Source: Parcubacteria group bacterium Gr01-1014_8 (GTDB taxonomy: Bacteria; Patescibacteriota; Minisyncoccia; Phycocordibacterales; UBA2100). From it: a stretch of DNA of 64,000 nt. Numbering within the stretch: position 1 is the first letter of the stretch; the number at the start of each line of letters is the position of its first letter. The DNA lies in NCBI GenBank assembly GCA_007376385.1, contig VMGC01000001.1:160001-224000 (forward strand), written 5' to 3'. Made by a program: the position numbers and the translations under genes. The notes under the pieces are model-generated. The model was not told the origin of the DNA. It did no database searches and saw nothing but the letters and a program-made list of their open reading frames with translations. This document shows positions 1 through 45,372 of this stretch, one piece after another.

Positions 1-1557
1 TACGCGACGAGCGTTGCTCTCGCATATGCGAAAGAGGCGGGGGTAAAACCGCGCGAGCTTGCAGAAAAACTTGTTGCATCGATGGGATCAGTTGAGGGAA
101 TCTCAAAGATTGATATTGCGGGGCCGGGGTTCATAAATTTTACTCTCGACCCTCGATTCGTATACAAGTCGCTCGAAGCGGGTCTTATGCAGGAAGAGCA
201 ATGGGGGAGCGGACTTTCGCGAAAAGGAAAGAAGATGATGATCGAATACACTGACCCGAACCCGTTCAAGGAATTTCACATTGGCCACCTTGTTCCGAAT
301 ACGCTTGGAGAAAGCATCTCGCGATTGCTAATGTTTTCCGGGGCGGAGGTAAAGCGCGCGAACTATCAGGGCGATGTCGGTATCCATGTCGCAAAGTCCC
401 TTTTCATTCAGTTGGAGAAGGGTATTACAGACCCGACAATCGAGGACCTTGCAAGCGCCTATCCTGAGGGCTCGCGCCGATACGATGAGGACCCTGAAGC
501 GAAAAAAGCCATTGATGAGCTGAACAAAAAGATTTACGACAAGAGCGACGAGAAGATCAATGCGTTGTACGCAAAGGGAAGAGCGCTCTCTCTCGCGCAC
601 TTTGAGGAGTTATACAAAGTTCTTGGAACAACATTCGATTACTATTTTTTCGAAAGCGAGACGGGACCGATCGGCGTGAAGGAAGTGCGGGCGCATCCGG
701 ACGTGTTCGAAGAAAGCGAAGGCGCCGTTGTGTTCAAGGGGGAGAAGTACGGCTTGCATACGCGTGTATTCATCAACAAGCTTGGGCTCCCGACGTACGA
801 AGCAAAAGAACTCGGGCTCGCGCGAATGAAGGCAGAGAAATATCAATTCGATCTTACGCTCACAATAACCGCAAATGAGCAGGCGGAATACTTCAAGGTG
901 GTCATGAAAGCCATGGAACTTTCGCTTCCTGACCTTCGCGGCAAACTCGCGTTCAAGACAAATGGTTTGCTTCGTTTTGCTGACGGAAAAATGTCATCAC
1001 GCCTTGGCAATATCATTACCGGGGAGGAGTTGATAGGCGACCTGAAAGAGAAGGCCATGGAACGCGCATCAAAGAGCAGGGCTACGGACGCGCAAAAACT
1101 GGCTGGTGAAGTTGCGGTTGGTGCCATCAAATATCAAATACTCAAGCAAGGGTTTGGGAAAGATATTATTTTCGACAGAGAACGGGCGCTCTCGCTAGAG
1201 GGCGATTCCGGTCCATACCTTCAGTACGCACATGCCCGAACGAGTGCAATTGTTGAAAAAGCGAGGGGGACGGGCATCGTCGTGAAATTCGATACTGCGA
1301 GCGGTGCGAGCGAACTCGTACGCCGCTTATACCGATTCAACGAGATTGTTATGCGCGCGACAGACGAGCTTGAGCCGCATCTTGTTGCCACCTACCTCAT
1401 CAATCTTGCGGCGGCATTCAATAGCTGGTACGCGAATGAGCAGATACTCGATGGAACACTTGGTGCGTCTCACAAAGTTGCGATAACTGATATCACGAGG
1501 CAGACGCTCAAAAATGGACTTTGGCTCCTCGGTATTCCGGCGCCGGAAAAGATGTGA
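1..1557 (+). CDS. argS: arginine--tRNA ligase (5' end truncated by the window edge)
   Basis: The ORF from 82 extends in frame back to position 1 (translation ...ALAYAKEAGVKPRELAEKL...). Class I HIGH-type motif HIGHLV, ArgRS core and the C-terminal DALR anticodon-binding region are present. Ends in TGA. Confidence 0.9.
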   Translation, partial: YATSVALAYAKEAGVKPRELAEKLVASMGSVEGISKIDIAGPGFINFTLDPRFVYKSLEAGLMQEEQWGSGLSRKGKKMMIEYTDPNPFKEFHIGHLVPNTLGESISRLLMFSGAEVKRANYQGDVGIHVAKSLFIQLEKGITDPTIEDLASAYPEGSRRYDEDPEAKKAIDELNKKIYDKSDEKINALYAKGRALSLAHFEELYKVLGTTFDYYFFESETGPIGVKEVRAHPDVFEESEGAVVFKGEKYGLHTRVFINKLGLPTYEAKELGLARMKAEKYQFDLTLTITANEQAEYFKVVMKAMELSLPDLRGKLAFKTNGLLRFADGKMSSRLGNIITGEELIGDLKEKAMERASKSRATDAQKLAGEVAVGAIKYQILKQGFGKDIIFDRERALSLEGDSGPYLQYAHARTSAIVEKARGTGIVVKFDTASGASELVRRLYRFNEIVMRATDELEPHLVATYLINLAAAFNSWYANEQILDGTLGASHKVAITDITRQTLKNGLWLLGIPAPEKM

Positions 1558-1595
1558 AGCGTTTCAGCGGAGCATATTTCTGTTAGGATGTCGAA

Positions 1596-4500
1596 ATGGC
1601 CGAACAAAACTCACAAGAAAAGAGCGAGACTGCAAAACGAGAAGAGGAGGTGTTGAAGTTTTGGAAAGAGAACACTATCTTCGAGAAATCGCTCAAAAAG
1701 AGAGCTCCGAAAGGCGAGTTTGTTTTTTATGATGGACCTCCGTTTGCGACTGGCTTGCCGCATACGGGTTCGCTCCTTTCATCCATCATCAAAGATGTCG
1801 TGCCGCGCTATAAAACAATGCGGGGATACGTGGTGCAGAGGCGCTGGGGATGGGATTGCCATGGGCTTCCTATCGAGAGCCTTATCGAAAAACGTCTGAA
1901 CTTAAAGACGAAGAAAGACATCCTTGATATCGGCATCGACACATTCAACGAGGCTGCACGGGCGAGTGTGATGGAATTTGAGCACGAGTGGGAAAAGTAT
2001 GTCGACCGTGTCGGCCGATGGGTCGACTTCAAGAATTCCTACAAAACGATGGATAACTCGTACATCGAGAGCGTATGGTGGGCTTTGAAGCAGTTGTATG
2101 AAAAATCGCTGTTGTATGAAGGCAATAAAGTACTCATGTATTGTCCTCACTGCGAGACGCCGCTTGCGAAAGCGGAGATAGCGATGGACCATACGTACAA
2201 AGACATTACAGAAGAGGCGGTCACTGTCCGGTTCAAGATAAAACGTCCGTCGCGCTACGGACTTCCCGAGAATACTCACTTCCTTGCGTGGACGACAACA
2301 CCGTGGACATTGCCGGGCAACGTCGGTCTTGCAGTCGGTCCTGGCATTAGTTATGTTCTTGTGCCGGAATCCGGCGGGATGGCCATCGTTGCCAAGGATC
2401 GCCTCGACATCTTGAAAAAAAGTGCACGTCCGCGGGTAAGCGTCGACATGGGCAGGGAATATAAAGGTTCGGAGCTTGTCGGGATGGAATATGAGCCTTT
2501 GTATGACGTTGTTTCGGTCATCAGACATGGGGGCAATAAACACGTTGTACTCCCTGCGGATTTTGTGTCGACGGAAGAGGGAACGGGCGTCGTGCACACG
2601 GCAGTGATGTACGGAGAAGATGACTTCGCACTGGGGCAAAAAGAAAATCTGCCCAAAGTGCAACTACTCAATCCGAATGGCACATACAACAAAGAAGCGC
2701 CAGCATTTTTACAAGGAAAATATATCAAGGAAGCAGAGAGAGATATTAAACGCGATCTCGAATCGCGCGGACTCCTTTTTGAACGCGAGAATCATACGCA
2801 CTCATATCCGCATTGCTATCGATGCGGGACGCCATTAATTTACAATGCTGTCGCGTCGTGGTTCATCAATATTCAGAAAGTGAAGGACAAAATGCTTTCA
2901 GAGAACGAAAAAGTACAGTGGGTACCGGAACATCTGAAGCACGGGCGCTTCAAGAATATCGTGGAGAATGCGCCAGATTGGACAATTTCGCGCAATCGCT
3001 TTTGGGCGTCGCCGCTTCCTATCTGGAAAGAGAAGAAAGGGAATCGCGTGATGGTTGTCGGTTCACTCGACGAGATAAAGAAAAAGTCGAAGAAAAGCGG
3101 TAATAAATATTTTGTGATGCGGCATGCGTGGTCAACCGGGAATGAGAATGGCACGCTGAGTTCAGACAAGGATGCGGACATCGGTCTGACAGAGAAAGGG
3201 ATCGCGGACGCTCGCGCATCCCTGCGAGCATTCGGAACGAAAGTGGATATCATCTATACGTCGTCCTTTAAACGAACCCGCGAGACTGCAGATATAGCAG
3301 CGGAGGTGCTTGGCGTGCCAAAGGAACATATCAAATCTGATGATAGATTAGGAGAATGCAATTTTGGTCCATACAGCGGGAAGACGCTTGAGGAGTACCA
3401 CGCGGCATTCCCGGAAAAGGCAGAGCGATTCAGTAAAGGCCCTGAAGGTGGGGAGACGTACGTAGAAATTCGTCGACGTATGATGTCGGTTCTGTCCGAA
3501 TTGGAAAAAAGTGAGAAAGGCAAAAATATCCTTATCATCTCGCACGGCACGCCGCTCTGGCTTCTCTGTGCATCTGCGAGAGGGCTCTCTCGCGAAGAGG
3601 CGCTCTCGACTCGCGAGACGGATTATCCGAAACAAAGTGTTATCACCGAACTCTCGTTCGTACCGCTTCCCTATAACGCCGACTATGAATTGGACCTTCA
3701 TCGACCGTATACGGATTCATTGACGCTCCTCGATGAAGAGGGGCGAGAATACGAACGAATTCCGGAGGTCGTGGACTGCTGGGTCGAGTCCGGCTCCATG
3801 CCCTTTGCGGAACAGCACTATCCATTCGAGAATAAATCGGTATTTGAAAAGAGAGCGCCGGGCGATTTTATCGCTGAATATATAGCTCAAACGAGGACGT
3901 GGTTCTACTATATGCACGCGATGGGCGTTCTCCTATTCGGAAGGCTCGCATTCCGAAATGTTGTTTCGACGGGAACCATTCTTGCGGCAGATTCATCTAA
4001 AATGTCGAAGTCGAAGGGAAACTACACGGACCCTTTGGTTGTTATGGACCGCTATGGCGCGGATGCGTTGCGCTTCTATTTGATGGGAAGCGTCGTGATG
4101 CAGGCAGAGGATCTGAATTTTCGCGATGAGGATGTTCGCGATACGCATAATCGCGTTATGGGGCTTTTGTGGAATACATATAAATTCTATGAGCTCTACA
4201 AAAAAGAATACGAAGGAAAAGCTTTTGCGAAAAGAAGCACGAATTTGTTGGACCAATGGGTCATCGCACGGCTTAATGAAACTGTGCGCACAGTTACAAA
4301 TGCGCTTGATGCGTTCAATATGCCGCCTGCAGCACGGGCCATACGAGATTTCGTTGAAGATTATTCCACGTGGTATGTGCGCCGCTCCAGGGAGCGCGTG
4401 AAGGGTTCTGATAAGGCGGATAAACAATTCGCGCTTGCGACGCAAAGAGAAGTACTGCTCGATGTTGCGAAAATGCTCGCGCCCATTGCTCCTTTCATAG

Positions 4501-5093
4501 CCGAGAGCGTGTACAGAGGTGTAGGAGGAGCGCTTGAAAGCGTGCACTTGGAAGAATGGCCGAGTGGGATTTCAAGAGGATTTTTCTCTCGATTATTTGG
4601 CCGCGACAAGAGCAAAGAATCTTTAGCAAACATGGCAGCGGTGAGAGCTGCCGTATCACGTGCACTTGAAGCTAGAGAGAGGGCACGTATGAAAATACGC
4701 CAGCCGCTCTCGGCATTGATCCTTAACGGTGAACGCTTCCCCATCAAGGAAAGCGGGCTCCTTGATATCATCAAAGAAGAAGTGAACGTGAAGCGTGTTG
4801 ACGTTGGGGACATAACGGACGACGTATGGTTGGATACTGCGCTCACTCCTGAATTGAAGCGAGAAGGCCTCATTCGCGAGGTCTCGAGAACGGGACAGGC
4901 GGAGAGGAAGCTTTTGAAGCTGAGTCCGGAAGACAGGCTTTTCAGGGTCATCGTGCGCGGAACAAACGATACGATCCTCGCTGTTAAGGAACACGAATCA
5001 TACTTGCGGGAATCACTGAAAACCGATGTTTTGATGACCGAAGTAGATGAGTCTGGCAAAGAGCCTATGCGCGTTTCCATCGAGAAAAGATGA
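1596..5093 (+). CDS. ileS: isoleucine--tRNA ligase (eukaryote-like type 2) with an inserted histidine-phosphatase domain
   Basis: N-terminal 'EEVLKFWKEN', a HIGH-region variant PHTGS, CP1 editing-domain motif TTTPWTLPGN, 'DWTISRNRFWASPLP', KMSKS (SKMSKSKGN) and a C-terminal anticodon-binding region. The 1165 aa include an extra ~200 aa (see the insertion feature below). Confidence 0.9.
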   Translation: MAEQNSQEKSETAKREEEVLKFWKENTIFEKSLKKRAPKGEFVFYDGPPFATGLPHTGSLLSSIIKDVVPRYKTMRGYVVQRRWGWDCHGLPIESLIEKRLNLKTKKDILDIGIDTFNEAARASVMEFEHEWEKYVDRVGRWVDFKNSYKTMDNSYIESVWWALKQLYEKSLLYEGNKVLMYCPHCETPLAKAEIAMDHTYKDITEEAVTVRFKIKRPSRYGLPENTHFLAWTTTPWTLPGNVGLAVGPGISYVLVPESGGMAIVAKDRLDILKKSARPRVSVDMGREYKGSELVGMEYEPLYDVVSVIRHGGNKHVVLPADFVSTEEGTGVVHTAVMYGEDDFALGQKENLPKVQLLNPNGTYNKEAPAFLQGKYIKEAERDIKRDLESRGLLFERENHTHSYPHCYRCGTPLIYNAVASWFINIQKVKDKMLSENEKVQWVPEHLKHGRFKNIVENAPDWTISRNRFWASPLPIWKEKKGNRVMVVGSLDEIKKKSKKSGNKYFVMRHAWSTGNENGTLSSDKDADIGLTEKGIADARASLRAFGTKVDIIYTSSFKRTRETADIAAEVLGVPKEHIKSDDRLGECNFGPYSGKTLEEYHAAFPEKAERFSKGPEGGETYVEIRRRMMSVLSELEKSEKGKNILIISHGTPLWLLCASARGLSREEALSTRETDYPKQSVITELSFVPLPYNADYELDLHRPYTDSLTLLDEEGREYERIPEVVDCWVESGSMPFAEQHYPFENKSVFEKRAPGDFIAEYIAQTRTWFYYMHAMGVLLFGRLAFRNVVSTGTILAADSSKMSKSKGNYTDPLVVMDRYGADALRFYLMGSVVMQAEDLNFRDEDVRDTHNRVMGLLWNTYKFYELYKKEYEGKAFAKRSTNLLDQWVIARLNETVRTVTNALDAFNMPPAARAIRDFVEDYSTWYVRRSRERVKGSDKADKQFALATQREVLLDVAKMLAPIAPFIAESVYRGVGGALESVHLEEWPSGISRGFFSRLFGRDKSKESLANMAAVRAAVSRALEARERARMKIRQPLSALILNGERFPIKESGLLDIIKEEVNVKRVDVGDITDDVWLDTALTPELKREGLIREVSRTGQAERKLLKLSPEDRLFRVIVRGTNDTILAVKEHESYLRESLKTDVLMTEVDESGKEPMRVSIEKR
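3105..3700 (+). other. Histidine phosphatase (PGAM/SixA-like) domain inserted in the IleRS connective region
   Basis: The translation contains the ordered branch-1 histidine-phosphatase motifs: VMRHAWS (RHG-type catalytic His), LTEKGIADA, IYTSSFKRTRETA, RLGECNFGPYSGKTLEEY, ETYVEIRRRM and ILIISHGTPL (second catalytic His). It is flanked by IleRS sequence (IWKEKKGNRVMVVGSLDEI upstream, LDLHRPYTD...VDCWVESGSMPF downstream). The ORF is continuous and there are no intein-like termini. Confidence 0.7.
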
Positions 5094-5094
5094 C

Positions 5095-5670
5095 ATGTAC
5101 GCAAAGTATCAAACAGAGGCGGTTGTCTTAGGGAGCCGGAATATGAACGAAGCGGACAAGATAGTGGCGCTCTTTACGCGCGACTTTGGTCTCGTGCAGG
5201 CGAAGGCCACGGCTGTGCGTTCGGAGGGTTCGAAGATGCGCTACGCTCTGCAGAATTTCTCTCGCGCGCAAGTCGCGCTTATTAAGGGAGCGAGTGGCTG
5301 GCGAGTGGCTGGCGCTGTATCCATTTCCAATACGCCTGATGCTGGTGGCGAAGCACTCGCGGCACTCGCACGCGTCTCGCAGCTTGTGCTGCGGCTCATC
5401 AAAGGGGAGGAGCGAAACGAATATCTGTTCGCAGCACTCGCGGATGCGCATGCGGCGCTTGTGCAAAAACCCTGCGACGCTTGGGCAACCATTGAATTGA
5501 TGTGCGTTGCCCGCATCCTGTATTCGCTCGGATACTTGTCTTTTGAGGCGTTCGAGACCGCTCTCTTCTCGCACACTGCATACGTAGGGGAGCATTTGAA
5601 GGAAGCTGAAAAACTTAGGGAAAAGCTTTTGGCGTCGGTTAATCGAGCAATGGGGGAGACGCATCTTTAA
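5095..5670 (+). CDS. recO: DNA repair protein RecO (short form)
   Basis: The N-terminal OB-fold signature YxTEAVVL...EADKIVALFTRDFGLVQAKA...SKMRYALQNFS is typical of RecO. I placed the start at the ATG at 5095, just after the ileS stop, rather than the ORF-track start at 5047, which overlaps ileS. Confidence 0.7.
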   Translation: MYAKYQTEAVVLGSRNMNEADKIVALFTRDFGLVQAKATAVRSEGSKMRYALQNFSRAQVALIKGASGWRVAGAVSISNTPDAGGEALAALARVSQLVLRLIKGEERNEYLFAALADAHAALVQKPCDAWATIELMCVARILYSLGYLSFEAFETALFSHTAYVGEHLKEAEKLREKLLASVNRAMGETHL

Positions 5671-5683
5671 TTAAGAATTACGT

Positions 5684-6355
5684 ATGAAATTTGCTACTGT
5701 TGTTTTTGATTTCGACAGTACTCTCGTTGATGTAGAGACGCTTGAGTCAGTGAGTGAGATTGCACTGCAAGGAAGAAAAGATTTCGCTGCCGTGACGGCG
5801 CAGATACGCACCATTACAGAACGCGGCTTGCAGGGAACGATGGCGTTTGATGAATCGCTCGCTCGCCGCATGGCGCTCATTGCCCCGCGCAGAGAGGATG
5901 TTCAGAGAGTCGCGGGCGGGCTTGTCGAGCACATTACGCCGTCAGTGTTGCAGCACAGGGATTTTTTTGCGCACAACGCAGAATGTGTATTCATCGTATC
6001 TGGCGGGTTTGATGAATTGATATTTCCGGTATCAGACACGCTGGGTATTCTTAGGAAGAATGTATTTGCAAATGCCTTTGTGTACGATGAACGCGGTGTT
6101 GCGGTCGGCGTCGACACAACCCGCCCGCTCTCACAGCATCTCGGTAAGGTGAAAGCGTTGAGAGCGGAGAATTTAAAGAGACCGCTTGCGATGGTCGGCG
6201 ATGGTTACACAGATTATGAAGTCAAAGCGCATGGCGAGGCGGATGTCTTTATTGCGTATGTTGAGCATACGCATCGCGACGCAGTCGTGGAACATGCGGA
6301 TAATGTCGCGCTGTCATTCAGCGATGTGCGTCGGTATTTGGAAATGATGTTGTGA
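5684..6355 (+). CDS. HAD-superfamily hydrolase, phosphoserine-phosphatase-like (HAD-IB)
   Basis: Motif I DFDSTL at the N-terminus and a C-terminal GDGYTD (motif IV-like), with a SerB-like layout overall. Confidence 0.75.
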   Translation: MKFATVVFDFDSTLVDVETLESVSEIALQGRKDFAAVTAQIRTITERGLQGTMAFDESLARRMALIAPRREDVQRVAGGLVEHITPSVLQHRDFFAHNAECVFIVSGGFDELIFPVSDTLGILRKNVFANAFVYDERGVAVGVDTTRPLSQHLGKVKALRAENLKRPLAMVGDGYTDYEVKAHGEADVFIAYVEHTHRDAVVEHADNVALSFSDVRRYLEMML

Positions 6356-6365
6356 GCATCTGGAG

Positions 6366-7169
6366 TTAGAGAGACAGTACGTATTGCAGGCGTCGAACGA
6401 GCGCATCATGGATATCGCGAGTGGTGCGAACTTGATTCGTGATCTTGAAATCCACGCCTGTTCGCAAGCGCTCGGAGTAAGAGTTGTGCGTGGCGAGTCG
6501 TTCTGGTGTTGCAACGTAATCGCTCGATGAATGCTGTTTGGCTTCTTGGCCGCAGCGAAGTGCATAGGTATATAGTCGATGTAGCATCTCTGTGCCCTGC
6601 GGGCCGTCGAATTCCCGCAACATTTTTCTCGCTTTGTTCTTGACGAGCTTTTTTTGATCGTCCGTGAGCCACGTGTATCTACTGCCAACTGTATCGGAAG
6701 GAGTGCCCGCGACGTCGATCAAAAATTCAAAATTTCCTGGGATGTCAAAGTTATATATTTGTCCGTCGCTGATGGAATAGTTTTGCAACACGTGAAGGCC
6801 TCTGTCGCCTATGCCAAAGACAACGGCGAGAATAAACATATCTGACTCCGCGACATCTATTTCTGTTGCTGAAGGTTGTCTTTGCCCTCTTTCTGGTGCG
6901 GCCATTGAATAGAAGTTGCCGCGGACTTTGTCATATACTACGGGGCATTGGTTTATGGCTTTCTCGAGAAGCAATGACGTAAAAAATTGTCGTACGGGTT
7001 TGTCGAGCACGAGGTAGAATTTTCTTCCGCTCTCATCTTCAAAAATAGGGTACCCGTAATCTGGTTCATTAGCGATCTTTCGCAGATCCTCACCTTCGAG
7101 AATGGCCCGCGAGTGCGGTATATCATCGGGTGTCGCGTTCGATACTATGTCCTCGTGAGCCATCATCAT
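6366..7169 (-). CDS. hypothetical protein
   Basis: Long minus-strand ORF. I trimmed the start to the MMMAHEDIV methionine cluster (7163-7169), because the ORF-track start at 7433 would overlap the divergent gene at 7231. No recognisable motifs. Confidence 0.45.
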   Translation of the reverse strand: MMMAHEDIVSNATPDDIPHSRAILEGEDLRKIANEPDYGYPIFEDESGRKFYLVLDKPVRQFFTSLLLEKAINQCPVVYDKVRGNFYSMAAPERGQRQPSATEIDVAESDMFILAVVFGIGDRGLHVLQNYSISDGQIYNFDIPGNFEFLIDVAGTPSDTVGSRYTWLTDDQKKLVKNKARKMLREFDGPQGTEMLHRLYTYALRCGQEAKQHSSSDYVATPERLATHNSYSERLRTGVDFKITNQVRTTRDIHDALVRRLQYVLSL

Positions 7170-7230
7170 ACATCGTGGCAGTAAGTATACTGCCGGCGGG
7201 TACGCGGCACTACGTGGTATTATTTTTGGG

Positions 7231-9195
7231 ATGCCGACGAATGGTTCTCCTTCACACGAAGACGAGCGAATTGACCGCTTGCGGCGCGCGATGTACTCGC
7301 GTTCGCTTTCTCCTAACATCAAGGATAAGCCGCGCCGTGAGATGCGCCCCGAGAAAAATCCCGTCGGAGAAGATTGGCAGAGGGCAGAGCCGAAGATACC
7401 AGGCTCGCTCATTGCCCCGCGCGGCATCGGCATGATGCGGCTTGTGATGAAATGGCTTGTCGCGGCTGCGGTAGCATTCTTTGTAGGTGCGCTTGGTTTT
7501 TTTGCATATTATTTCATCCTTGGCGGGGGGAGTTCTCCAGCGTCCCCCGGGAACATCGATATCTCGATCTCGGGCCCGCTGCAAATTGCAAGCGGCGAGC
7601 CGGCCGAATTGCAGGTTGCAATCGTCAATCGAAACCGAACATCATTACAGCTTGCAGACCTCGTCGTAAAATATCCGAATGGAACTCGCTCGCCGACGGA
7701 CCTTCTCACGTCGCTTCCTGATCAACGCATTCCACTCGGGACAATAGAACCCGGAGGGAGGAGACAAGGAACAGTGTCAGCTGTATTTTCCGGTGTTGAA
7801 GGCGAGCACGCGGACATCGCCGTTGAGTTGGAATATCGTCTTGAGAATTCGAGCGCCATCTTTGTTGCGACATCCCAATATCAATTTTTGTTTGCTTCTT
7901 CGCCACTCTCAATTTCTATCGAAGGTAATGATGAGACAGTGTCCGGACAGCCTATTGAGCTCAAGGTGACAATAGCGTCGAACTCTGACACGCCAGTCAA
8001 AGATGTCCTGTTCACGGGGAGCTATCCTTTCGGGTTCACGTTCGGCTCGGGCGAGCCGTCGCCAACGAAGATAGGCGGGGGAAATATGTGGTCGCTCGGA
8101 GATATATTTCCTGGACAAAAACGCACGATCATTTTGCAAGGCACTCTCGCAGGAGAATCCGGAGATGAGCGGGTCTTTCGTTTCAGTGCGGGGACGCGCA
8201 AGTCGAAGACGGACCAGACGATATCTACAACGCTTGCTGACTATGCGCATCATATAACCGTCTCAAAACCATTCCTGGGACTTGCTGTCCTGATCAATAA
8301 AGAAGCGGGTGGGAACACCACTGTCGCTCCTGGAGATTCTGTGACCGTGTCAGTCACGTATCAGAACAATCTTCAAACTGCTATTGCCGACGCGGTCATC
8401 GTCGCGCGTCTTTCGGGCGCTGAGATTGACGGCACGACGGTGCGCTCAACGGACGGATTCTATCGCTCCGCTGATAATGTTGTGCTCTGGGACAAATCAA
8501 CGACGAACGGCAGTTTGGCCACCATCGCGCCCGGGGCGAAGGGGACGGTTAGCTTTTCATTCGTCGTGCCGAAAGATGAAGCGATGCAGGCGCTCCGCAA
8601 CCCTCGGCTCGACATAACTGTGCACGCGGCGGGAAAACGAGTATCGCAAACGGGAGTACCGGAAACTCTGCAGGCGAGCGCGTCGCAAACTCTCCGCTTC
8701 GCAAGCGACTTGCAACTCGCGGCGCAAGGCCTCTATTACACGAATCCTTTCGGGTCGACCGGGCCAATGCCTCCGAAGGCTGGCACGGAGACGACATACG
8801 CGATAGTTTTCAACGTTACCAATACGACAAATAAAGTAGAGAATGCAACTGTACGAGCCACACTGCCGCCGTATGTTCGATGGGTAGGCGTCTACAGTCC
8901 GTCGACGGAAAAGTTGGTGTTCAATCCCAACGATTCGTCCGTGACCTGGCACATAGGCACGATAGAGCCGGGTGCCGGCATCGGCGGCGCTCTGCCGCGT
9001 CAGGCCGCCATCGCGATCGGTTTTACGCCATCCACAAGTCAGATAGGCCAGCAGCCGGCGCTCATACGGAGCATCTCGCTTTCTGGCACGGATGCATCCA
9101 CTCATGTGTCAGTGACGAAAACGACAACTGATATCACGACGAATATAGTCGGCGACCCTGGATTTTCTGCAGCGAACGCGACGGTCGTCAAATAA
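7231..9195 (+). CDS. membrane-anchored extracellular repeat protein (beta-rich, CARDB/DUF11-like repeats; family not certain)
   Basis: 654-aa ORF with an N-terminal TM anchor WLVAAAVAFFVGALGFFAYYFIL, followed by repeated ~100-aa T/S/G-rich beta-type modules. Confidence 0.6.
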   Translation: MPTNGSPSHEDERIDRLRRAMYSRSLSPNIKDKPRREMRPEKNPVGEDWQRAEPKIPGSLIAPRGIGMMRLVMKWLVAAAVAFFVGALGFFAYYFILGGGSSPASPGNIDISISGPLQIASGEPAELQVAIVNRNRTSLQLADLVVKYPNGTRSPTDLLTSLPDQRIPLGTIEPGGRRQGTVSAVFSGVEGEHADIAVELEYRLENSSAIFVATSQYQFLFASSPLSISIEGNDETVSGQPIELKVTIASNSDTPVKDVLFTGSYPFGFTFGSGEPSPTKIGGGNMWSLGDIFPGQKRTIILQGTLAGESGDERVFRFSAGTRKSKTDQTISTTLADYAHHITVSKPFLGLAVLINKEAGGNTTVAPGDSVTVSVTYQNNLQTAIADAVIVARLSGAEIDGTTVRSTDGFYRSADNVVLWDKSTTNGSLATIAPGAKGTVSFSFVVPKDEAMQALRNPRLDITVHAAGKRVSQTGVPETLQASASQTLRFASDLQLAAQGLYYTNPFGSTGPMPPKAGTETTYAIVFNVTNTTNKVENATVRATLPPYVRWVGVYSPSTEKLVFNPNDSSVTWHIGTIEPGAGIGGALPRQAAIAIGFTPSTSQIGQQPALIRSISLSGTDASTHVSVTKTTTDITTNIVGDPGFSAANATVVK

Positions 9196-9245
9196 CGCGG
9201 TTCCATTTTCCCGAGGGAAGCTTTTAAGGTACACTCCAATTTCAT

Positions 9246-10628
9246 ATGACCGAATCACTCATGGAAAAGATAGTCTCGCTCGCTAAACGGCGTGGGTTCG
9301 TCTATCAAGGTTCGGAAATATACGGCGGCCTTGCGGGTACATGGGACTATGGGCCCCTCGGTGTTGCCCTCAAGAAGAATATCGAGAATTTGTGGTGGAA
9401 GAGATTCGTCTTGGATCGCGAGGATATGTATGGCATCGATGCGGCGCTTCTCATGAATCCTAATGTCTGGAAAGCGAGCGGGCATGTGGATGGGTTTGCT
9501 GACCCGCTTGTCGAGGACGTGAAGACACATAGAAGATACAGAGCGGATCACTTGCTTGAGGAAGCGGGGGTTGACCCTAAGGGAATGACTGCGGCACAGA
9601 TGGACCAGACCCTTAAGGAGAAGGGAATAAGGAGTCCGGATGGCAATACGCTCGGCGATGTGAAGCAGTTCAACATGATGTTCAAGACGAGCATCGGGGC
9701 CTCCGGCGATGAGTCATCAATATCGTATCTTCGGCCGGAAACAGCGCAGGGCATGTTCGTCAACTTTAAGAACGTCATGGATACATTCCATCCTAAATTG
9801 CCGTTTGGCATGGCGCAGATAGGGAAAGCCTTCCGCAATGAGATAGCGCCGAGGGATTTCATCTTTCGAGTGCGAGAACTCGAACAGATGGAAATAGAAT
9901 ATTTCGTGAGACCGGAGGACTGGCGGAAACACTTCGACTACTTTTTAAACGAACAAAAGGATTATCTTACGAAGGATCTGGGGCTGCCGGAACAATATAT
10001 TCACTCTGTTGAGGTTCCTGCGGTCGATAGAGCGCATTATTCCAAGCACAGCGTGGACACAGAGTTCGACTTTCCGTTCGGCCAGAAAGAACTCTTGGGA
10101 CTTGCGTACCGCACAGACTTCGACCTTGGGGCGCATGCAAAAGCGTCCGGCGTTGACCTTTCTTACTATGATGAAGAGACGAAGGAGCGGTTCACTCCGC
10201 ATTGCATCGAGCCGACGTTCGGTGTTGGGCGGCTATTCTTGGCTATTCTATCGGGTGCGTATGCTGAAGATGAGAAGAACGGAGAAGTGCGGACATTCCT
10301 TAAATTCTCTTCTAATGTTGCGCCGGTGAAAGCGGCTGTGTTCCCACTCCTTAAGAACAAGCCGGAACTTGTGGCAAAGGCCAGGGAAGTATATGTGGAC
10401 CTTAAAGTGCAGATACCGCAGCTTATGTGGGATGACAACGGTAACATCGGCAAGCGCTATCGCCGGCAAGATGAGATCGGGACTCCGTACTGCATCACCA
10501 TAGACTTCGATACCCTGGGGGAGAGCGGCGATGAGAAAAAAGATACCGTGACCGTACGGGAGAGAGATACTGGCGAACAGACACGATTGCCCATCAGCGA
10601 GCTCGCAAAAAAAGTGAACGGTTCATGA
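9246..10628 (+). CDS. glyQS: glycine--tRNA ligase (alpha2 homodimeric type)
   Basis: MTESLMEKIVSLAKRRGFVYQGSEIYGGLAGTWDYGPLG..., class II motifs and a C-terminal anticodon-binding domain; 460 aa. Confidence 0.9.
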   Translation: MTESLMEKIVSLAKRRGFVYQGSEIYGGLAGTWDYGPLGVALKKNIENLWWKRFVLDREDMYGIDAALLMNPNVWKASGHVDGFADPLVEDVKTHRRYRADHLLEEAGVDPKGMTAAQMDQTLKEKGIRSPDGNTLGDVKQFNMMFKTSIGASGDESSISYLRPETAQGMFVNFKNVMDTFHPKLPFGMAQIGKAFRNEIAPRDFIFRVRELEQMEIEYFVRPEDWRKHFDYFLNEQKDYLTKDLGLPEQYIHSVEVPAVDRAHYSKHSVDTEFDFPFGQKELLGLAYRTDFDLGAHAKASGVDLSYYDEETKERFTPHCIEPTFGVGRLFLAILSGAYAEDEKNGEVRTFLKFSSNVAPVKAAVFPLLKNKPELVAKAREVYVDLKVQIPQLMWDDNGNIGKRYRRQDEIGTPYCITIDFDTLGESGDEKKDTVTVRERDTGEQTRLPISELAKKVNGS

Positions 10629-10770
10629 AAGGTTTCAAACCCCGGGGCAAGCCGCGGGGTTTTGAACCTTTGCTGCCTGCGCCGCTCGGGAATGCAAAAC
10701 TGCGCTTGTGCGTTTTTCTCGCTATCCTCGACAGATAAAAAAAGAGGCCATTGTGCTACCATAAGAACAT

Positions 10771-11832
10771 ATGCCGAATGCGACATTTTCCATCTCTACG
10801 GGCACCATCGTCAAAACGCTTGTTGTTCTTGCGGGTGCGTGGCTTTTATTCCAGCTTCGCGACCTCGTTCTCGTCATACTAACGGCAGTTGTCATAGCAT
10901 CAGCTATCGAGCCGGGCATCCGCACGCTTTCAAGGTATCGCATTCCGCGTCTTCTTGCAGTTATCTTTATCTATCTTTTTCTCATTACGCTCTTCTTAGG
11001 CATATTCTATTTCTTTCTCCCGCTCGTTCTAGAAGATTTTGCAACATTCCTCACAGCGCTTCCGAGTTACTTGGATACATTCAGTAACGTAGGCGCTTTC
11101 GATGAGTACTCGCGCATACTAGGGATTCCGGCCCCTGCAGAGATATCGTCGTCTGCTCTGATGGAACAAGTGCAAAATGGCCTTAATTTGAGCGGTTTTT
11201 TCGGCAATGCACTCGGTGCAGCGTCGAGCATATTCGGCGGCGTGCTCTCCTTTGTTCTCATCATCGTTTTTTCCTTCTACTTTGCGGTGAATGAGACTGG
11301 TATTGCAGATTTCTTGCGCTTCATTGTGCCGAGAAAGTACGAATCATACGTCTTGGATCTTTGGAAACGCTCTCAGCACAAAATAGGACTTTGGATGCAG
11401 GGCCAGCTCATCCTTGGATTTTTCATGGGAGTATTCGTGTGTCTCGGTCTTCTTATCATCGGCGTGAAGCACGCGCTTCTTCTCGCTGTCATTGCGGCGC
11501 TCTTTGAATTGATCCCGGTCTTTGGCCCGACGCTTGCCGCTGTTCCTGCCATTGTGATTGGTTTTGCTGATGGCGGTTTCACGGTCGGTGTGCTGGTCAT
11601 CGCGCTTTACGTCATTCTGCAACAGTTCGAAAATCACTTGCTGTACCCTGGAGTCGTAACAAAGGTTGTCGGTGTGCCGCCGCTTCTCGTTATCCTCGCG
11701 CTCATCATCGGGGCGAAGCTCGCCGGATTCTTAGGAATACTCTTGTCGGTTCCTATGGCAGCTGCACTGCAGGAATTTGTTCGGGATATCGAACAGAGGA
11801 GAAAATTTGCAGTGGACGACGAGGGCGTGTAG
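10771..11832 (+). CDS. AI-2E family transporter (PerM/UPF0118)
   Basis: 353 aa, about 8 TM segments, with the characteristic AI-2E central and C-terminal hydrophobic pattern. Confidence 0.8.
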   Translation: MPNATFSISTGTIVKTLVVLAGAWLLFQLRDLVLVILTAVVIASAIEPGIRTLSRYRIPRLLAVIFIYLFLITLFLGIFYFFLPLVLEDFATFLTALPSYLDTFSNVGAFDEYSRILGIPAPAEISSSALMEQVQNGLNLSGFFGNALGAASSIFGGVLSFVLIIVFSFYFAVNETGIADFLRFIVPRKYESYVLDLWKRSQHKIGLWMQGQLILGFFMGVFVCLGLLIIGVKHALLLAVIAALFELIPVFGPTLAAVPAIVIGFADGGFTVGVLVIALYVILQQFENHLLYPGVVTKVVGVPPLLVILALIIGAKLAGFLGILLSVPMAAALQEFVRDIEQRRKFAVDDEGV

Positions 11833-11841
11833 CCTCACCTC

Positions 11842-13275
11842 ATGGGCAAGTCCTTTTATTTGACAACAACGCTCCCGTACGTGAATGCCGACCCTCACAT
11901 CGGTTTTGCGCTCGAGCTTGTGCATGCGGATATTCTGGCGCGCTATCGTCACTCCTTGGGCGATGATGTGTTCTTTAATACTGGAACAGACGAGCATGGC
12001 TTGAAGATATATCGCAAGGCACAGGAGGAGGGAAAGAAGCCGCAAGCGTATACGGACGAGTACGCAGCAAAGTTCAAGGACTTGAAAGGAAAGCTCGATC
12101 TATTTCCTGGTATCCATTTCATTCGGACGACCGACGCGAACCATAAGAAAGCTGCGCAGGAATTGTGGCGGAGGTGTCTCGCAAAAGGAGATATTTACAA
12201 GAAAAAATATAAAGGCTTGTATTGCGTCGGTGATGAAGCTTTCATCAAGGAAAGCGAATTAGTGAACGGAAGGTGTTCGAATCATCCGACAATGGAAGTC
12301 ATAGAAATAGAGGAAGAGAATTATTTCTTCAGATTGAGTGCGTATCAAGAAAAATTGCTTGTCTACCTTAACCAGGAAGGAGTTATTGTGCCCGAATGGC
12401 GAAGGAAGGAGGCAATTCAGTTCGTCGAACGAGGCCTGGAGGATTTCAGCATCTCCCGCGTAAAAGAGAAGATGCCGTGGGGTGTCGCAGTTCCGGATGA
12501 TGAGAACCAAGTAATGTACGTATGGTTTGATGCTCTGACCAACTACATCTCGACCTTGGGTTGGCCGGAGGATAGAGAGGGCCTCTACAAAAAGTTCTGG
12601 GAGGGTGGCGAGACTGTTCAGCTTGCAGGCAAAGACCAAGTTCGCTTTCAATCCATTATGTGGCAGGCGATGTTGATGTCCGGCGGACTTGCGACGACAA
12701 AAAAGATCGTATATCACGGCTTTATCACGAGCGGAGGACAAAAAATGTCTAAATCCGTCGGGAATGTCATCGACCCCTTGGCAATTGTTGATGAATACGG
12801 CGTGGATGCACTCCGCTATTTTCTCGCGCGGCACGTGCATCCGTTTGAAGATTCAGATTTTACGATGGAGCGGTTCAAGGAGGCTTATAATGCCGATCTT
12901 GCAAATGGGATCGGAAATGCTGCAGCGAGAATTATGACTCTTGCGGAAAAGCATCTCGACAAACCGGTGGAGGTGTCTCCGGCAGAGTTCGCAGATTATT
13001 TCATTGAGAGTATGAATAAATATGAATTCAACGAGACCGTTGCTCACGTAACGGCCTTTGTTGTTGCTCTCGATGAACTCATTACAAGTAAGGAACCATT
13101 CAAACTTGTAAAATCGGACCCAGAAAGTGCCAAAACTGTAATCACTGACGGGGTTCGCATGTTGTGGAGTCTGAATTATCATCTCCAAATATTTATGCCG
13201 GACACTGCGCAGAAGATTCAACAGGCGATAAAAGAGAATAAAAAGCCCGAGAATCTTTTCCCGCGTAAAGAATAA
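11842..13275 (+). CDS. metG: methionine--tRNA ligase
   Basis: HIGH-region variant 'NADPHIGF', KMSKS (QKMSKSVGN) and an anticodon-binding helical domain. Confidence 0.9.
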   Translation: MGKSFYLTTTLPYVNADPHIGFALELVHADILARYRHSLGDDVFFNTGTDEHGLKIYRKAQEEGKKPQAYTDEYAAKFKDLKGKLDLFPGIHFIRTTDANHKKAAQELWRRCLAKGDIYKKKYKGLYCVGDEAFIKESELVNGRCSNHPTMEVIEIEEENYFFRLSAYQEKLLVYLNQEGVIVPEWRRKEAIQFVERGLEDFSISRVKEKMPWGVAVPDDENQVMYVWFDALTNYISTLGWPEDREGLYKKFWEGGETVQLAGKDQVRFQSIMWQAMLMSGGLATTKKIVYHGFITSGGQKMSKSVGNVIDPLAIVDEYGVDALRYFLARHVHPFEDSDFTMERFKEAYNADLANGIGNAAARIMTLAEKHLDKPVEVSPAEFADYFIESMNKYEFNETVAHVTAFVVALDELITSKEPFKLVKSDPESAKTVITDGVRMLWSLNYHLQIFMPDTAQKIQQAIKENKKPENLFPRKE

Positions 13276-44660: not shown

Positions 44661-45360
44661 TTCCCGCTTAAGAAATTGAGCGGGGAAGGACTGGGACGAT
44701 CATAGAATCGAATAAACAGCGAAAGAAAATACCAAAGCTGCCTCTCTGTGCAGTAATGCACAAGTGGTCCTAGAAACATGGCTATATGCTGGAAACCCTA
44801 TGGTATAATTATTCCATAGATGAGTAATCAGCAGGAAAGGCCAGAGATGAAAGGGTGGATCGTCGGTTTTACCGACGGCGAAGGATGCTTTTCAATAAGC
44901 ATGTTTCGCAACAAAACCACCAAGTTTGGTTGGCAAGTATTCCCAGAGTTTGTAATAACTCAGGGAAAGAAAAGTTTGCCAGCACTCGAAACTTTCCAAA
45001 ACTTCTTTAAGTGCGGAAAGATATACGAGAACGCTAGGTACGATAATCATCGTGAATATCTGTATCGATACTGTGTACGATCAATTTCGGATTTGCGGGA
45101 GAAAATAATCCCGTTTTTTCGAAAAAACAAATTGTATACAGCCAAACAAAAAGATTTCGAACTGTTTGCAGATGTCATAGAAAAGGTGTATCGAAAAGAA
45201 CATCTTTTAGAATCGGGATTGCGAGCGATAGCGCGCAAGATCGAACAGATGAATCGCAAGAAGAAATCAACATTTCTGGAATCCTCAGAGACTACACGCC
45301 ATGCCCCTAAATCTAAATAAGATCGGGTGAAGATATAGTCCAAAGGTAATAGGAACCTAG
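44661..45360 (+). mobile_element. group I intron 1 (after the E. coli U1917 equivalent) encoding an intact LAGLIDADG endonuclease
   Basis: The upstream exon ends in T, the intron ends in G (omega-G), and the downstream exon resumes at AGCGAAATTCCT. Conserved R-like (cagagactacacg) and S (gaagatatagtcc) core elements are present. Confidence 0.75.
44820..45320 (+). CDS. LAGLIDADG homing endonuclease (single-motif, 166 aa)
   Basis: Motif IVGFTDGEGCFS with the pattern characteristic of LAGLIDADG homing endonucleases. The 3' end of the ORF overlaps the intron R element. Confidence 0.8.
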   Translation: MSNQQERPEMKGWIVGFTDGEGCFSISMFRNKTTKFGWQVFPEFVITQGKKSLPALETFQNFFKCGKIYENARYDNHREYLYRYCVRSISDLREKIIPFFRKNKLYTAKQKDFELFADVIEKVYRKEHLLESGLRAIARKIEQMNRKKKSTFLESSETTRHAPKSK

Positions 45361-45372
45361 AGCGAAATTCCT

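Follow-up and report, generated by a model that had tools for sequence, protein, structure and literature searches.

Aminoacyl-tRNA synthetases are among the best-studied enzymes, and their accessory domains have repeatedly given new biology (editing, signalling, resistance). Isoleucyl-tRNA synthetases (IleRS) that carry an extra enzyme form a recognised class, IleRS with an N-acetyltransferase (NCBIfam NF040702, ileS_w_GNAT), whose accessory domain differs from the one described here. Bacterial CCA-adding enzymes have an HD-domain phosphohydrolase as their own 2',3'-cyclic phosphodiesterase/phosphatase for tRNA 3'-end repair. The histidine phosphatase (HP) superfamily includes the protein phosphatases SixA, PGAM5 and Sts-1, and among its short members are PspA (4IJ5/4IJ6), a phosphoserine phosphatase, and GpgP (4PZ9/6S2Q), a glucosyl-3-phosphoglycerate phosphatase. 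Within the connective peptide (CP) of IleRS, CP3 is structurally the most variable subdomain (PMC7191050), and in the yeast enzyme the segment 453-ARDWNVSRNRYWG-465, homologous to the CP2-3 linker, lines the tRNA 3'-end and reveromycin pocket (PMC7955072); our CP subdomain names follow these two papers.

Here we examined an ileS gene with an embedded HP domain in a 64-kb stretch of DNA (hereafter the window) from an uncultured member of the Patescibacteria; an identical protein has been deposited for Parcubacteria group bacterium Gr01-1014_8. Found here are the clade-wide occurrence of the embedded domain, its split form upstream of ileS and its counterpart in valyl-tRNA synthetase (ValRS). 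Full-text literature searches, including those on Patescibacteria/CPR, returned no published description of a phosphatase-bearing IleRS or other tRNA synthetase, in keeping with an earlier reading made from the letters of the window (the sequence-only reading), which knew of none.

The ileS gene and its embedded domain

The features of the locus are as follows.

1..1557, + strand: argS, truncated at its 5' end by the window edge (Pfam tRNA-synt_1d and DALR_1; frame open from nucleotide 1)
1596..5093, + strand: ileS, predicted type-2 IleRS with embedded HP domain (ORF, 1165 aa; TIGR00392)
1761..1772, + strand: non-canonical HIGH signature H-T-G-S, aa 56-59 (translation, motif census of homologues)
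2196..2813, + strand: CP1 editing domain, aa ~201-406 (1WK8 match, 3.5e-32)
2970..3008, + strand: CP2-3 linker APDWTISRNRFWA (translation)
3084..3677, + strand: inserted block, aa 497-694, comprising linker K-x-S-G-N, the HP and linker P-L-P-x-N (alignment gap against 8C8U)
3111..3605, + strand: His_Phos_1 (PF00300) match, aa 506-670 (Pfam, E=8e-35)
3120..3128, + strand: R509-H510-A511, with the predicted phosphate-binding Arg and nucleophilic His (column counts, translation)
3273..3275, + strand: R560, predicted second phosphate-pocket arginine (117/117 conserved)
3354..3356, + strand: E587, presumed general acid/base in the RLxE motif (117/117 conserved)
3453-3455, + strand: E620 (translation)
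3543..3545, + strand: H650, predicted second catalytic histidine in the SHGxPLW motif (117/117 conserved)
3678..3770, + strand: C-terminal half of CP3 (ADYELDLHRPYTD...EVVDCW), where the IleRS fold resumes (8C8U alignment resumes at query 695)
3999..4013, + strand: KMSKS signature, aa 802-806 (translation)
5047..5670, + strand: recO, overlapping the ileS stop (Pfam RecO_N)

The gene for argS lies directly upstream of ileS, and the 38-nt spacer between them holds no free-standing HP gene; recO completes the argS-(HP)-ileS-recO order common to relatives in which the two genes are split. Pfam scans of the 64-kb window revealed no second ileS, its annotation contained neither a kinase nor a pyrophosphatase, no further His_Phos gene and no gene for RNA repair, and no tRNA genes were present in it.

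The window protein exceeds the TIGR00392 (ileS) equivalog cut-off (825.2 bits vs 621.4). Its nearest solved relatives are the Priestia megaterium IleRS2 8C8U (2e-207), Thermus thermophilus 1ILE and eukaryotic IleRS, the match to type-1 IleRS being weaker (1.7e-91), and a DUF5915-type C-terminal domain was recognised by PF19302. In an AlphaFold2 (AF2) model of the full-length protein (pLDDT 84.6), the top Foldseek matches were likewise IleRS2. Judging from these matches, we assign the synthetase to type 2. The canonical HIGH pattern (H-x-G-H) is absent; the clade shows HHGS, HTGS or HSGS at this site, with HHGS as the consensus in a census of homologues. The motif WTTTPWTLPGN in the CP1 editing domain, H702, P704, Y705 and D707 in the C-terminal half of CP3, and K802, S804, K805 and S806 of KMSKS are invariant in the family. 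Apart from the insert, the IleRS body is complete, with editing domain, KMSKS, anticodon-binding and C-terminal domains.

The sequence-only reading described an unbroken ileS ORF of 1165 aa, coding for a type-2 IleRS whose connective peptide seemed to have a true domain inserted at 3105-3700, with all the branch-1 HP motifs in order. Translation bore out the ORF and the order and coordinates of every listed motif, and the insert boundaries proved right to within ~7 codons at each end. Alignment with 8C8U pairs query residue 496 with chain residue 476 and query residue 695 with chain residue 482, which means that a block of about 198 aa replaces a CP3 surface loop of some 5 residues. The domain insertion is true and in frame, and can be placed more finely, in the CP3 subdomain just past the CP2-3 linker. 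The match to PF00300, a search that the same reading had proposed, reached 120.7 bits (gathering score 21.7), and the block 3105-3700, excised and searched alone, gave E=2.9e-36.

The insert is a genuine branch-1 HP domain with the full catalytic set of R509, H510, R560, E587 and H650, residues conserved in 99-100% of homologues, and the embedded phosphatase is apparently active. An AF2 model of the domain alone (pLDDT 95.9) and its Foldseek matches gave the alpha/beta fold and cap subdomain of branch-1 HPs, the cap comprising ~33 residues between E587 and E620. In the two linkers, K499, N503 and P692 do not vary and S501, G502 and N694 are at least 90% conserved, and in the full model pLDDT is 88-96 across both junctions. 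The G+C content of the insert (0.50-0.52) is no different from that of the rest of ileS, and the HP-domain family is mildly acidic (median pI 5.7). The window copy deviates in having RHA-W in place of RHG-E, plus P557S; the third position of the RHG motif is Ala here and Gly in 116 of 117 relatives. Elsewhere in the subfamily, TsaC-HP, P0167 and P0204 also have RHA. Relaxed selection on the RHA copy of the window is unsupported, given a typical ratio of HP to body identity (0.68 vs a median of 0.66), and comparison among homologues indicates that the HP domain is under purifying selection.

None of the NCBIfam HP subfamilies scored reached its cut-off with the insert. The highest-scoring was alpha-ribazole phosphatase CobC (TIGR03162, 77.6 vs 162.9), and metal-independent phosphoserine phosphatase PspA (NF045917) stayed at 60.3 vs 350 although it is the best PDB match. 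Cofactor-dependent phosphoglycerate mutase (TIGR01258, 30.0 vs 81.7; archaeal-type NF038349, 72.0 vs 225) and phosphohistidine phosphatase SixA (TIGR00249, 23.9 vs 74.5; SixA is capless, whereas the insert has a cap) were rejected as well. The score against IleRS with GNAT (NF040702, 298 vs 1999) came from the IleRS part only. Overall, the HP domain resembles the short small-molecule phosphatases PspA, PhoE and GpgP: phmmer gave E=5e-12 to 1e-11 against such enzymes and Foldseek E ~1e-13 at TM ~0.75, the best HP-only structural matches being PspA 4IJ6, GpgP 6S2Q/4PZ9, PhoE 1H2E and others.

Embedded, adjacent and unlinked forms

A survey of related IleRS for the same insertion, which the sequence-only reading had suggested, revealed a clade-wide feature, not one peculiar to the window genome. 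When the insert alone was searched, 100 of the 150 best cluster representatives at 50% identity were IleRS-embedded, with IleRS bodies down to ~30-40% identity. One apparent stand-alone match (P0140) was really an IleRS gene with embedded HP, broken by in-frame TGA codons taken as stops, in an organism that reads UGA as Trp; because of breaks of this type, some of the 50 non-IleRS matches are fragments. From then on, only free-standing HPs that clearly began with Met and also had a C-terminal end were used.

Among GTDB species representatives, 371 genomes carried a relative. In the best 80 loci of this survey, the HP lay directly upstream of ileS or within 0.6 kb in 47, was embedded at the same CP3 site in 20 and was unlinked in 10, the other 3 ending at a contig edge. 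Hence HP and ileS are linked, whether adjacent or embedded, at 67 of the 77 informative loci, across IleRS subtypes with HYGH, GVHH, GIHH and HxGS signatures. In sister Paceibacteria the closest free-standing HP, of 195 aa, is encoded immediately upstream of an ileS that has no insert. Gene order there (argS-ileS-recO) is that of the window, the stop codon of HP often overlaps or abuts the ileS start, and the free-standing and embedded HPs share the motifs N-x-Y-F-x-x-RHG and SHGxPLW. The window gene is the fused form of a conserved two-gene HP/ileS module. No N-terminal HP-IleRS fusion was seen among the insert-search clusters and surveyed loci, internal CP3 insertion being the rule. A rough neighbour-joining (NJ) tree interleaves embedded and adjacent forms and does not settle the direction, fusion or fission.

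One derived clade of the same HP subfamily sits away from ileS, in contexts that vary (MazG, NTP-transferase, nucleases), and no conserved partner was found among the neighbours of the unlinked HPs. A TsaC-HP fusion, considered as a clue to an adenylate/PPi link, was downgraded: it occurs in only 4 clusters, and patescibacterial TsaC is fused to many unrelated domains (MGMT, TruB, 2H, Nudix and GNAT besides HP).

The same domain was detected in a second synthetase. ValRS of Gracilibacteria, Peregrinibacteria and relatives carry 1-4 HP domains at the homologous CP3 site; HP was present in 71 of the 120 best ValRS matches, with 71 copies lying ~20 aa past WCISRQ. The copies are often tandem (2-4), a second insertion site follows CP1, a quarter of the copies lack the Glu and some are without the second His. 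In a rough NJ tree, the ValRS HPs form a clade separate from those of IleRS. ValRS in these other Patescibacteria gained the same domain, and did so at the position in CP3 homologous to that in IleRS.

Possible roles of the phosphatase

We favour, at a probability of roughly 0.55, the view that the HP serves the class Ia synthetase as its dedicated accessory catalytic unit, namely a phosphomonoesterase held rigidly beside the synthetic site. It would hydrolyse a phosphomonoester via a phospho-His510 intermediate, with the short conserved linkers fixing it next to the CP2-3 linker, which would line the tRNA 3'-end and adenylate pocket. Such a role is favoured by the linkage at 67 of 77 informative loci across IleRS subtypes, by the parallel insertion into ValRS at the same CP3 site and by the absence of N-terminal fusions though the free gene lies upstream. 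It is also favoured by the conserved and confidently modelled linkers, by a position adjoining the 3'-end pocket (PMC7955072) and by the family-typical rate at which the window copy evolves. Other observations weaken it: one HP clade lives away from ileS in variable contexts, and CP3, as the most variable CP subdomain, may simply be the most permissive site. The tandem ValRS copies, some without Glu or second His, suggest that exact geometry is not always needed, and in the window itself the case is weakened by RHA-W and P557S.

The modelled fold and cap resemble those of phosphatases of small, nucleotide-sized substrates, and two candidate targets are preferred. The substrate might be a phosphorylated nucleotide or metabolite in free form that either disturbs aminoacylation or is connected to it, which is doubtful but the likelier of the two, or a 2'/3'-phosphorylated 3'-terminal tRNA nucleotide cleaned before charging, a slightly fainter prospect; what is left of the probability of a coupled HP falls to candidate substrates of another kind. 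Fainter still is a bolder version, in which an HP embedded in CP3 or bound to IleRS would be the third catalytic site of patescibacterial class Ia synthetases, taking up the 3' end of tRNA in the manner of the editing site and stripping 2'/3'-phosphate or pyrophosphate. Candidate sources of such groups would be ribotoxins, tRNA-pyrophosphorylating toxins and the opening of cyclic phosphates, and tRNA end-healing and charging would take place on one enzyme. The mildly acidic domain offers no obvious RNA-binding surface, which weakens the tRNA-end idea, and we know of no RNA-end phosphatase in the HP superfamily. Since the HP family removes terminal phosphomonoesters, Ap4A is chemically unlikely as a substrate.

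The main rival to a dedicated accessory unit, which we regard as rather unlikely, is a general small-molecule phosphatase or mutase (e.g. PhoE, phosphoserine-phosphatase, PGM or nucleotidase-like) that is tied to aminoacylation by co-expression only, its gene having chanced into the argS-ileS-recO block and become fused as CP3 tolerates insertions. The closest relatives in sequence and structure are indeed all small-molecule enzymes, the domain is acidic, and recO is just as syntenic with ileS without a functional link. The unlinked clade in its variable neighbourhoods, the promiscuous fusions of patescibacterial TsaC, the tandem and partly degenerate ValRS copies and the differences in CP3 structure among IleRSs point the same way. 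However, chance association fits poorly with linkage at 67 of 77 loci over very deep divergence and across IleRS subtypes, or with parallel acquisition at the homologous CP3 site by ValRS in another class of Patescibacteria. Moreover, read-through from an upstream gene would give an N-terminal fusion, whereas the insertion is always internal, and its linkers are conserved and rigid.

A regulatory role is improbable even when its several forms are taken jointly. In one form the HP would remove phosphate from IleRS, for example to undo an inactivating phosphorylation close to the active site such as kinase toxins inflict on other class I synthetases; in another it would tune IleRS activity as a sensor of phospho-metabolites or as a pseudo-enzyme. 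That the HP is paired 1:1 with a single synthetase, in split and fused loci alike, would suit the synthetase as substrate, the superfamily has its protein phosphatases, some ValRS copies are kept despite a lost Glu or His, and the window copy has RHA-W. Yet the cap is of the full size typical of small-substrate members, unlike the capless SixA, the Foldseek neighbours are all metabolite phosphatases, no conserved kinase lies nearby, and the catalytic set, invariant in 117 IleRS copies, argues against a pseudo-enzyme. That the insert is a chimeric assembly, an intein or another mobile element removed from the mature protein has a negligible chance of being right, and the sequence data, as far as they reach, already refute it. 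Beyond its a priori oddity, this explanation can point to a real mobile insertion in the same genome, a 23S rRNA group I intron that carries a LAGLIDADG ORF. All 120 closest homologues, however, share the PF00133+PF00300 architecture in independent NCBI, JGI, ENA and Logan assemblies, on contigs of up to 837 kb, which disposes of the chimera that the sequence-only reading had wished to see excluded. Its remark that intein termini are lacking also holds: the junctions KKK/SKKSGNKYF and PLPYN/ADYELDLH have no Cys/Ser/Thr nucleophile and no His-Asn, Ser498 at the N-junction is followed by no Hint block, and no Hint/intein Pfam match was found in the window IleRS. Uniform composition and purifying selection on the HP domain likewise speak against this explanation.

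Hundreds of Paceibacteria species keep an apparently active phosphatase stably within IleRS or as its obligate neighbour, and the minimal genomes of these CPR lineages are unlikely to retain an idle domain. With split and fused forms to compare, and with the parallel CP3 insertion in two synthetases, a functional partnership can be put to a direct test. Were the substrate the tRNA 3' end, this would be a new tRNA quality-control step, a new type of quality control by synthetases and the first RNA-end phosphatase of the HP superfamily; were it a metabolite, the translation machinery would offer a new example of metabolic moonlighting, and 'phosphoglycerate-mutase family' calls in CPR metabolic reconstructions may then be synthetase inserts. 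Because many embedded-HP proteins are named merely 'class I tRNA ligase family protein' by NCBI, IleRS can be under-called. As a rare genomic change, the insertion could also serve as a clade marker.

Comparison with known systems

The whole synthetase body is like that of type-2 (eukaryote-like) bacterial IleRS (P. megaterium IleRS2 8C8U/8C8V, T. thermophilus 1ILE), sharing the Rossmann fold, CP core, CP1-CP3, KMSKS, anticodon-binding and C-terminal (DUF5915) domains (E=2e-207; Foldseek TM 0.73, target-normalised). Unlike 8C8U, it has ~198 extra HP residues in the CP3 loop, where that enzyme has 5 residues, and HTGS instead of HYGH. With HPs of ~200 aa, such as Hydrogenobacter PspA (4IJ5/4IJ6), Geobacillus PhoE (1H2E/1EBB), mycobacterial GpgP (4PZ9/6S2Q) and CobC, the insert shares the fold, cap and R-H...R...E...H set, but it is only 22-27% identical to them, sits in or beside a synthetase and has motifs of its own, K-x-S-G-N-x-Y-F ahead of RHG and SHGxPLW.

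Fusion of a branch-1 HP to a nucleic-acid enzyme is also seen in the RNase HI/CobC-like acid phosphatase (M. tuberculosis Rv2228c type, NF005567), whose phosphatase half the insert matches at 75.7 bits (cut-off 326); that protein is an end-to-end RNase H fusion, whereas the window IleRS has an internal insertion. The HD domain of CCA-adding enzymes offers a functional analogy for the tRNA idea, with an unrelated fold and a metal-dependent chemistry unlike that of HP. Further related systems exist within the Patescibacteria. The free-standing upstream HP (e.g. of 'Ca. Microsyncoccus archaeolyticus' or of the complete genome CP179888) belongs to the same subfamily, at 34-37% identity to the insert; in such split-form Paceibacteria there are two polypeptides, and the partner IleRS is insert-less and often of HYGH or GVHH type. 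ValRS of Gracilibacteria and Peregrinibacteria, in turn, has the same domain family at the same CP3 site, in another synthetase and another bacterial class.

A phosphatase domain within CP3 of IleRS

Features of the window
ends at 1557, cut by the window start: argS
1596-5093 (+): ileS, encoding a type-2 IleRS with a histidine-phosphatase (HP) domain; uninterrupted ORF of 1165 aa; TIGR00392
5684-6355: HAD hydrolase gene, among the aminoacyl-tRNA synthetase genes
6366-7433 (-): 355-aa ORF, no Pfam match; overlaps the start of the next ORF by ~200 nt, with a mis-set start probable in one of the pair
7231-9195 (+): 654-aa DUF11-repeat ORF
9246-10628: class II HGTP-type aminoacyl-tRNA synthetase gene
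11842-13275: metG, short, 477 aa
42579-47938 (+): 23S rRNA gene, 5.36 kb for a 2.9-kb model
44820-45320: LAGLIDADG endonuclease ORF in the 23S rRNA gene (E=2e-25)
45363-45607: group I intron in the 23S rRNA gene (RF00028, 67 bits)
48260-48365: 5S rRNA gene
48809-51190 (+): 793-aa ORF, Pfam MATCAP (microtubule-associated tyrosine carboxypeptidase family; E=6e-18), a family name unexpected in a bacterium

The ORF at 1596-5093 scored 825 bits against the NCBIfam model TIGR00392 (isoleucine-tRNA ligase; cut-off 621), and its product matched the Pfam families tRNA-synt_1, Anticodon_1, DUF5915 and His_Phos_1 (PF00300), the last at aa 506-670, between the halves of the catalytic domain (E=8e-35; 120.7 bits, where the gathering score is 21.7 bits). 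The block at 3105-3700, excised and searched alone, also gave a strong match to PF00300 (E=2.9e-36). These results bear out the sequence-only reading, which had described an unbroken 1165-aa ORF with an embedded phosphatase; all of the HP motifs that it listed were found in the insert, at coordinates verified by translation. ileS is one of four synthetase genes in the first 13 kb of the window (1-13275), among which tatD and an AI-2E transporter gene also lie.

PF00133 and PF00300 occurred together in all 120 best homologues listed (57-100% identity), which came from assemblies of NCBI, JGI, ENA and Logan, with contigs reaching 837 kb; those named were Parcubacteria, Kaiserbacteria, Paceibacterota or Minisyncoccia, and the 100% match was the protein deposited for 'Parcubacteria group bacterium Gr01-1014_8'. 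Given this shared architecture in separate assemblies, and a base composition of the insert equal to that of the remaining ileS gene, the probability of an assembly artefact is negligible. Our surveys (the best 120 homologues, the best 150 cluster representatives and the best 80 loci) are not censuses. An intein was rejected as well: no Hint or intein Pfam match was found in the window IleRS, and the junctions, translated as ...DEIKKK/SKKSGNKYF... and ...FVPLPYN/ADYELDLH..., lack intein junction residues at both ends, in agreement with the earlier proposal of a true domain insertion. For contrast, the window does hold a true mobile insertion, the group I intron with its LAGLIDADG ORF in the 23S rRNA gene, which has ~2 kb of further extra length; no 16S or tRNA gene was found within the 64 kb.

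The closest solved structure is IleRS2 of P. megaterium (8C8U; E=2e-207). Query residues 496 and 695 align to residues 476 and 482 of its chain, which puts ~198 residues (aa 497-694, nt 3084-3677) in place of a five-residue loop. Naming the subdomains after the IleRS structures of yeast and Candida (PMC7955072, PMC7191050), we identified the conserved segment APDWTISRNRFWA (aa 459-471) as the linker between connective peptides 2 and 3 (CP2-3), which in yeast IleRS forms part of the pocket for the tRNA 3' end and reveromycin A (PMC7955072). The insert is located ~30 residues beyond it, within CP3, flanked in the AF2 secondary structure by a short strand-strand-helix element (aa 476-497) and by a hairpin returning to the DCWVESGS strand; the connective-peptide placement given earlier was thus correct and is now narrowed to CP3. 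The full-length AF2 model (pLDDT 84.6, pTM 0.75) had type-2 IleRSs as its best PDB matches, with blocks over the HP domain and both junctions at 82-96. The linker residues preceding the domain (K499, S501, G502, N503) and following it (P692, N694) vary little or not at all and are modelled with confidence, which points to a phosphatase held in a fixed orientation rather than on a floppy tether.

Across 117 full-length relatives, H510, R560, E587 and H650 were conserved in every protein, R509 in 116, and N516 and E620 in 114 each. Sequence change is faster in the insert than in the synthetase body (mean pairwise identity 42-44% versus 65%), yet the catalytic and pocket positions are kept. The window copy reads RHA-W (116/117 relatives have RHG, and the next residue is E in 101/117) and carries S at the near-invariant P557. 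Because RHA recurs in other members of the subfamily and the overall divergence of this copy is typical of the family, we see no evidence of decay in its sequence.

Embedded, split and parallel forms

When the insert alone was searched against 1.84 billion 50%-identity cluster representatives, 100 of the 150 best matches were embedded in IleRS (full-length or fragments), with bodies only ~30-58% identical to the window IleRS, and the fusion is thus old and widespread. Rare variants include an IleRS with two tandem HPs (P0193) and a 1419-aa IleRS with a canonical HYGH (P0174; locus L004, 6001-10260) whose two HPs are located elsewhere, one following DCWFESGSMPYA and one separating the KMSKS region from the anticodon-binding domain; the other genes on its contig (SufBD, PurA, DAHP synthase, SLH protein) are not Patescibacteria-like. 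At locus L005 (3-1361), in-frame TGA at seven conserved Trp positions of an IleRS[HP] gene (including SS*F, H*VPEH, RP*AVSR, RF*G, LPI*E and DC*FESGS) indicates UGA=Trp recoding; gene callers had split this gene into three 'proteins', one resembling a free phosphatase.

About 30 of the remaining matches were genuine free-standing proteins of 185-213 aa. In all three cases examined (P0198, P0216, P0160) the free HP gene lay directly upstream of an insert-less ileS (955-984 aa), separated from it by 1-8 nt or overlapping it by 11 nt, in the order argS-HP-ileS-(small ORF)-recO; the small ORF is unannotated, of 100-178 aa, and has no Pfam match. The window order, argS-ileS[HP]-recO, matches, with a spacer of only 38 nt between argS and ileS. 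There, recO starts 47 nt before the ileS end (5047-5093), which suggests translational coupling of the two. With an alignment of free HPs as query, we scanned one genome for each GTDB species; 371 genomes contained relatives, and the best 80 loci were sorted by tblastn.

Position of HP relative to ileS in the best 80 loci
directly upstream of ileS: 44
overlapping the ileS start: 1
ileS ~0.6 kb downstream: 2
embedded, same CP3 site: 20
no ileS within 6 kb: 10
contig ends after HP: 3

HP was therefore physically linked to ileS in 67/77 informative loci, including 'Ca. Microsyncoccus archaeolyticus' (adjacent) and the complete Nealsonbacteria genomes CP179887 (embedded) and CP179888 (adjacent). 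This linkage spans IleRS subtypes with differing HIGH signatures: HYGH or GVHH in adjacent forms, and GIHH or HYGH in embedded ones, the window's clade having HxGS. The window IleRS has H-T-G-S (1761-1772, aa 56-59); its clade (P0001-P0120) has HHGS (64), HTGS (18) and HSGS (13), without the fourth His, and other HP-linked Patescibacteria IleRSs have G-x-H-H (GVHH, GIHH). The titles of PDB entries 8C8W and 8C9F tie altered HIGH motifs in IleRS2 to mupirocin hyper-resistance. In rough, distance-based NJ trees, embedded and adjacent HPs interleave, and the ten unlinked HPs form one derived clade (nine in a tight cluster, L054 nearby) for which no shared neighbour gene was found. One locus (L029, 4241-7278) shows argS-HP-recO without ileS, HP being in place and ileS elsewhere.

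The domain also occurs in ValRS. With a four-HP ValRS (P0266) as query, PF00300 was present in 71 of the 120 best matches, those named being Gracilibacteria and Peregrinibacteria, on contigs of up to 1.37 Mb; hmmsearch and motif mapping gave one copy in 58 proteins, two in 11, three in 1 and four in 1. Seventy-one copies lie in CP3, ~20 residues after WCISRQ and homologous to the IleRS site, and nine lie before WCISRQ, just after CP1. The E587 equivalent is lost in 24/87 copies and the second His in 9/87, multi-copy proteins almost always keeping at least one complete copy. As the ValRS HPs form a clade apart from the IleRS-linked ones in the rough NJ tree, their sequences suggest independent acquisition at the same CP3 site. 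Two ValRS matches (among P0266, P0270-P0388) also list PF04480 (DUF559, endonuclease-like). The IleRS insert shares its SGNKYFLMRHAEA junction with a TsaC(YrdC)-HP fusion, which in the same rough tree is placed among the IleRS-embedded HPs. We give this fusion little weight because it occurs in only four clusters and TsaC (threonylcarbamoyl-AMP synthase) is fused to many other domains: most Patescibacteria matches (P0256, P0389-P0505; L003) carry an MGMT-like PF01035, others TruB, 2H/cyclic phosphodiesterase (PF07823/PF13563), Nudix, GNAT or methylpurine glycosylase.

Phosphatase type and possible function

The window insert reached none of the NCBIfam HP subfamily cut-offs.

NCBIfam scores of the insert (cut-off in brackets)
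CobC: 77.6 (162.9)
Rv2228c-type RNase H/acid phosphatase: 75.7 (326)
archaeal dPGM: 72 (225)
PspA: 60 (350)
SixA: 24 (74.5)

Among solved proteins, those nearest in sequence are the Hydrogenobacter phosphoserine phosphatase PspA (4IJ5; 5e-12) and PhoE (1EBB, 1H2E; ~1.5e-11). A domain-only AF2 model (pLDDT 95.9) matched PspA, mycobacterial glucosyl-3-phosphoglycerate phosphatase, S. pombe PGM, a riboflavin-pathway phosphatase, PhoE, Rv3214 and FBPase-2 (TM ~0.7-0.75, 20-27% identity). Because sequence and fold matches agree in placing the insert in the fold group of PspA, PhoE and other 'short' branch-1 enzymes, we assign it as a predicted generic member with a normal cap. With its relatives, it makes up a separate subfamily, recognisable by the motifs N-x-Y-F-x-x-RHG and SHGxPLW. 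To our knowledge, all characterised 'short' branch-1 enzymes act on small phosphomonoesters. Ap4A, suggested by the sequence-only reading, is not a phosphomonoester and is thus an unlikely substrate for this chemistry.

Judging from sequence, an apparently competent HP is a conserved component or operon partner of IleRS in much of Paceibacteria, and the same holds for ValRS elsewhere in the Patescibacteria; both synthetases carry the insertion in CP3, with conserved junctions. We favour, at a probability of roughly 0.55, a functionally coupled accessory phosphomonoesterase that would work together with the synthetase, because the linkage to ileS is deep and frequent and persists across IleRS subtypes, because ValRS uses the same CP3 site in parallel, and because fusion is always internal, beside the catalytic core, where upstream read-through would yield an N-terminal fusion. 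Several observations weigh against coupling, or at least against the requirement for an exact geometry: the unlinked HP clade, the ValRS copies that are tandem and in part degenerate, the fusion-proneness of CPR proteins generally, the structural variability of CP3 (PMC7191050) and the mild acidity of the HP domain (median pI 5.7). A housekeeping enzyme that merely hitch-hikes with the synthetase is accordingly conceivable, if rather unlikely, and a regulatory or protein-directed role seems improbable. Were the phosphatase indeed coupled, a free nucleotide or metabolite would be a tentative candidate for its substrate and a tRNA 3'-end phosphate a doubtful one.

Relation to known synthetase architectures

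Both parts are ordinary, a type-2 IleRS and a branch-1 histidine phosphatase; their combination is new. No publication on this architecture was found in the literature, consistent with the sequence-only reading, which knew of no synthetase with a phosphatase domain. As precomputed Pfam annotations already display it, the architecture is unreported rather than undetectable, and many of the proteins are named merely 'class I tRNA ligase family protein' by the NCBI pipeline. Its interest lies in being clade-wide, present in two synthetases, found in split and fused forms, and directly testable. It belongs to a recognised kind, the aminoacyl-tRNA synthetases with an accessory enzymatic domain, among which IleRS with a GNAT domain has an NCBIfam model of its own, whereas IleRS-HP has none.
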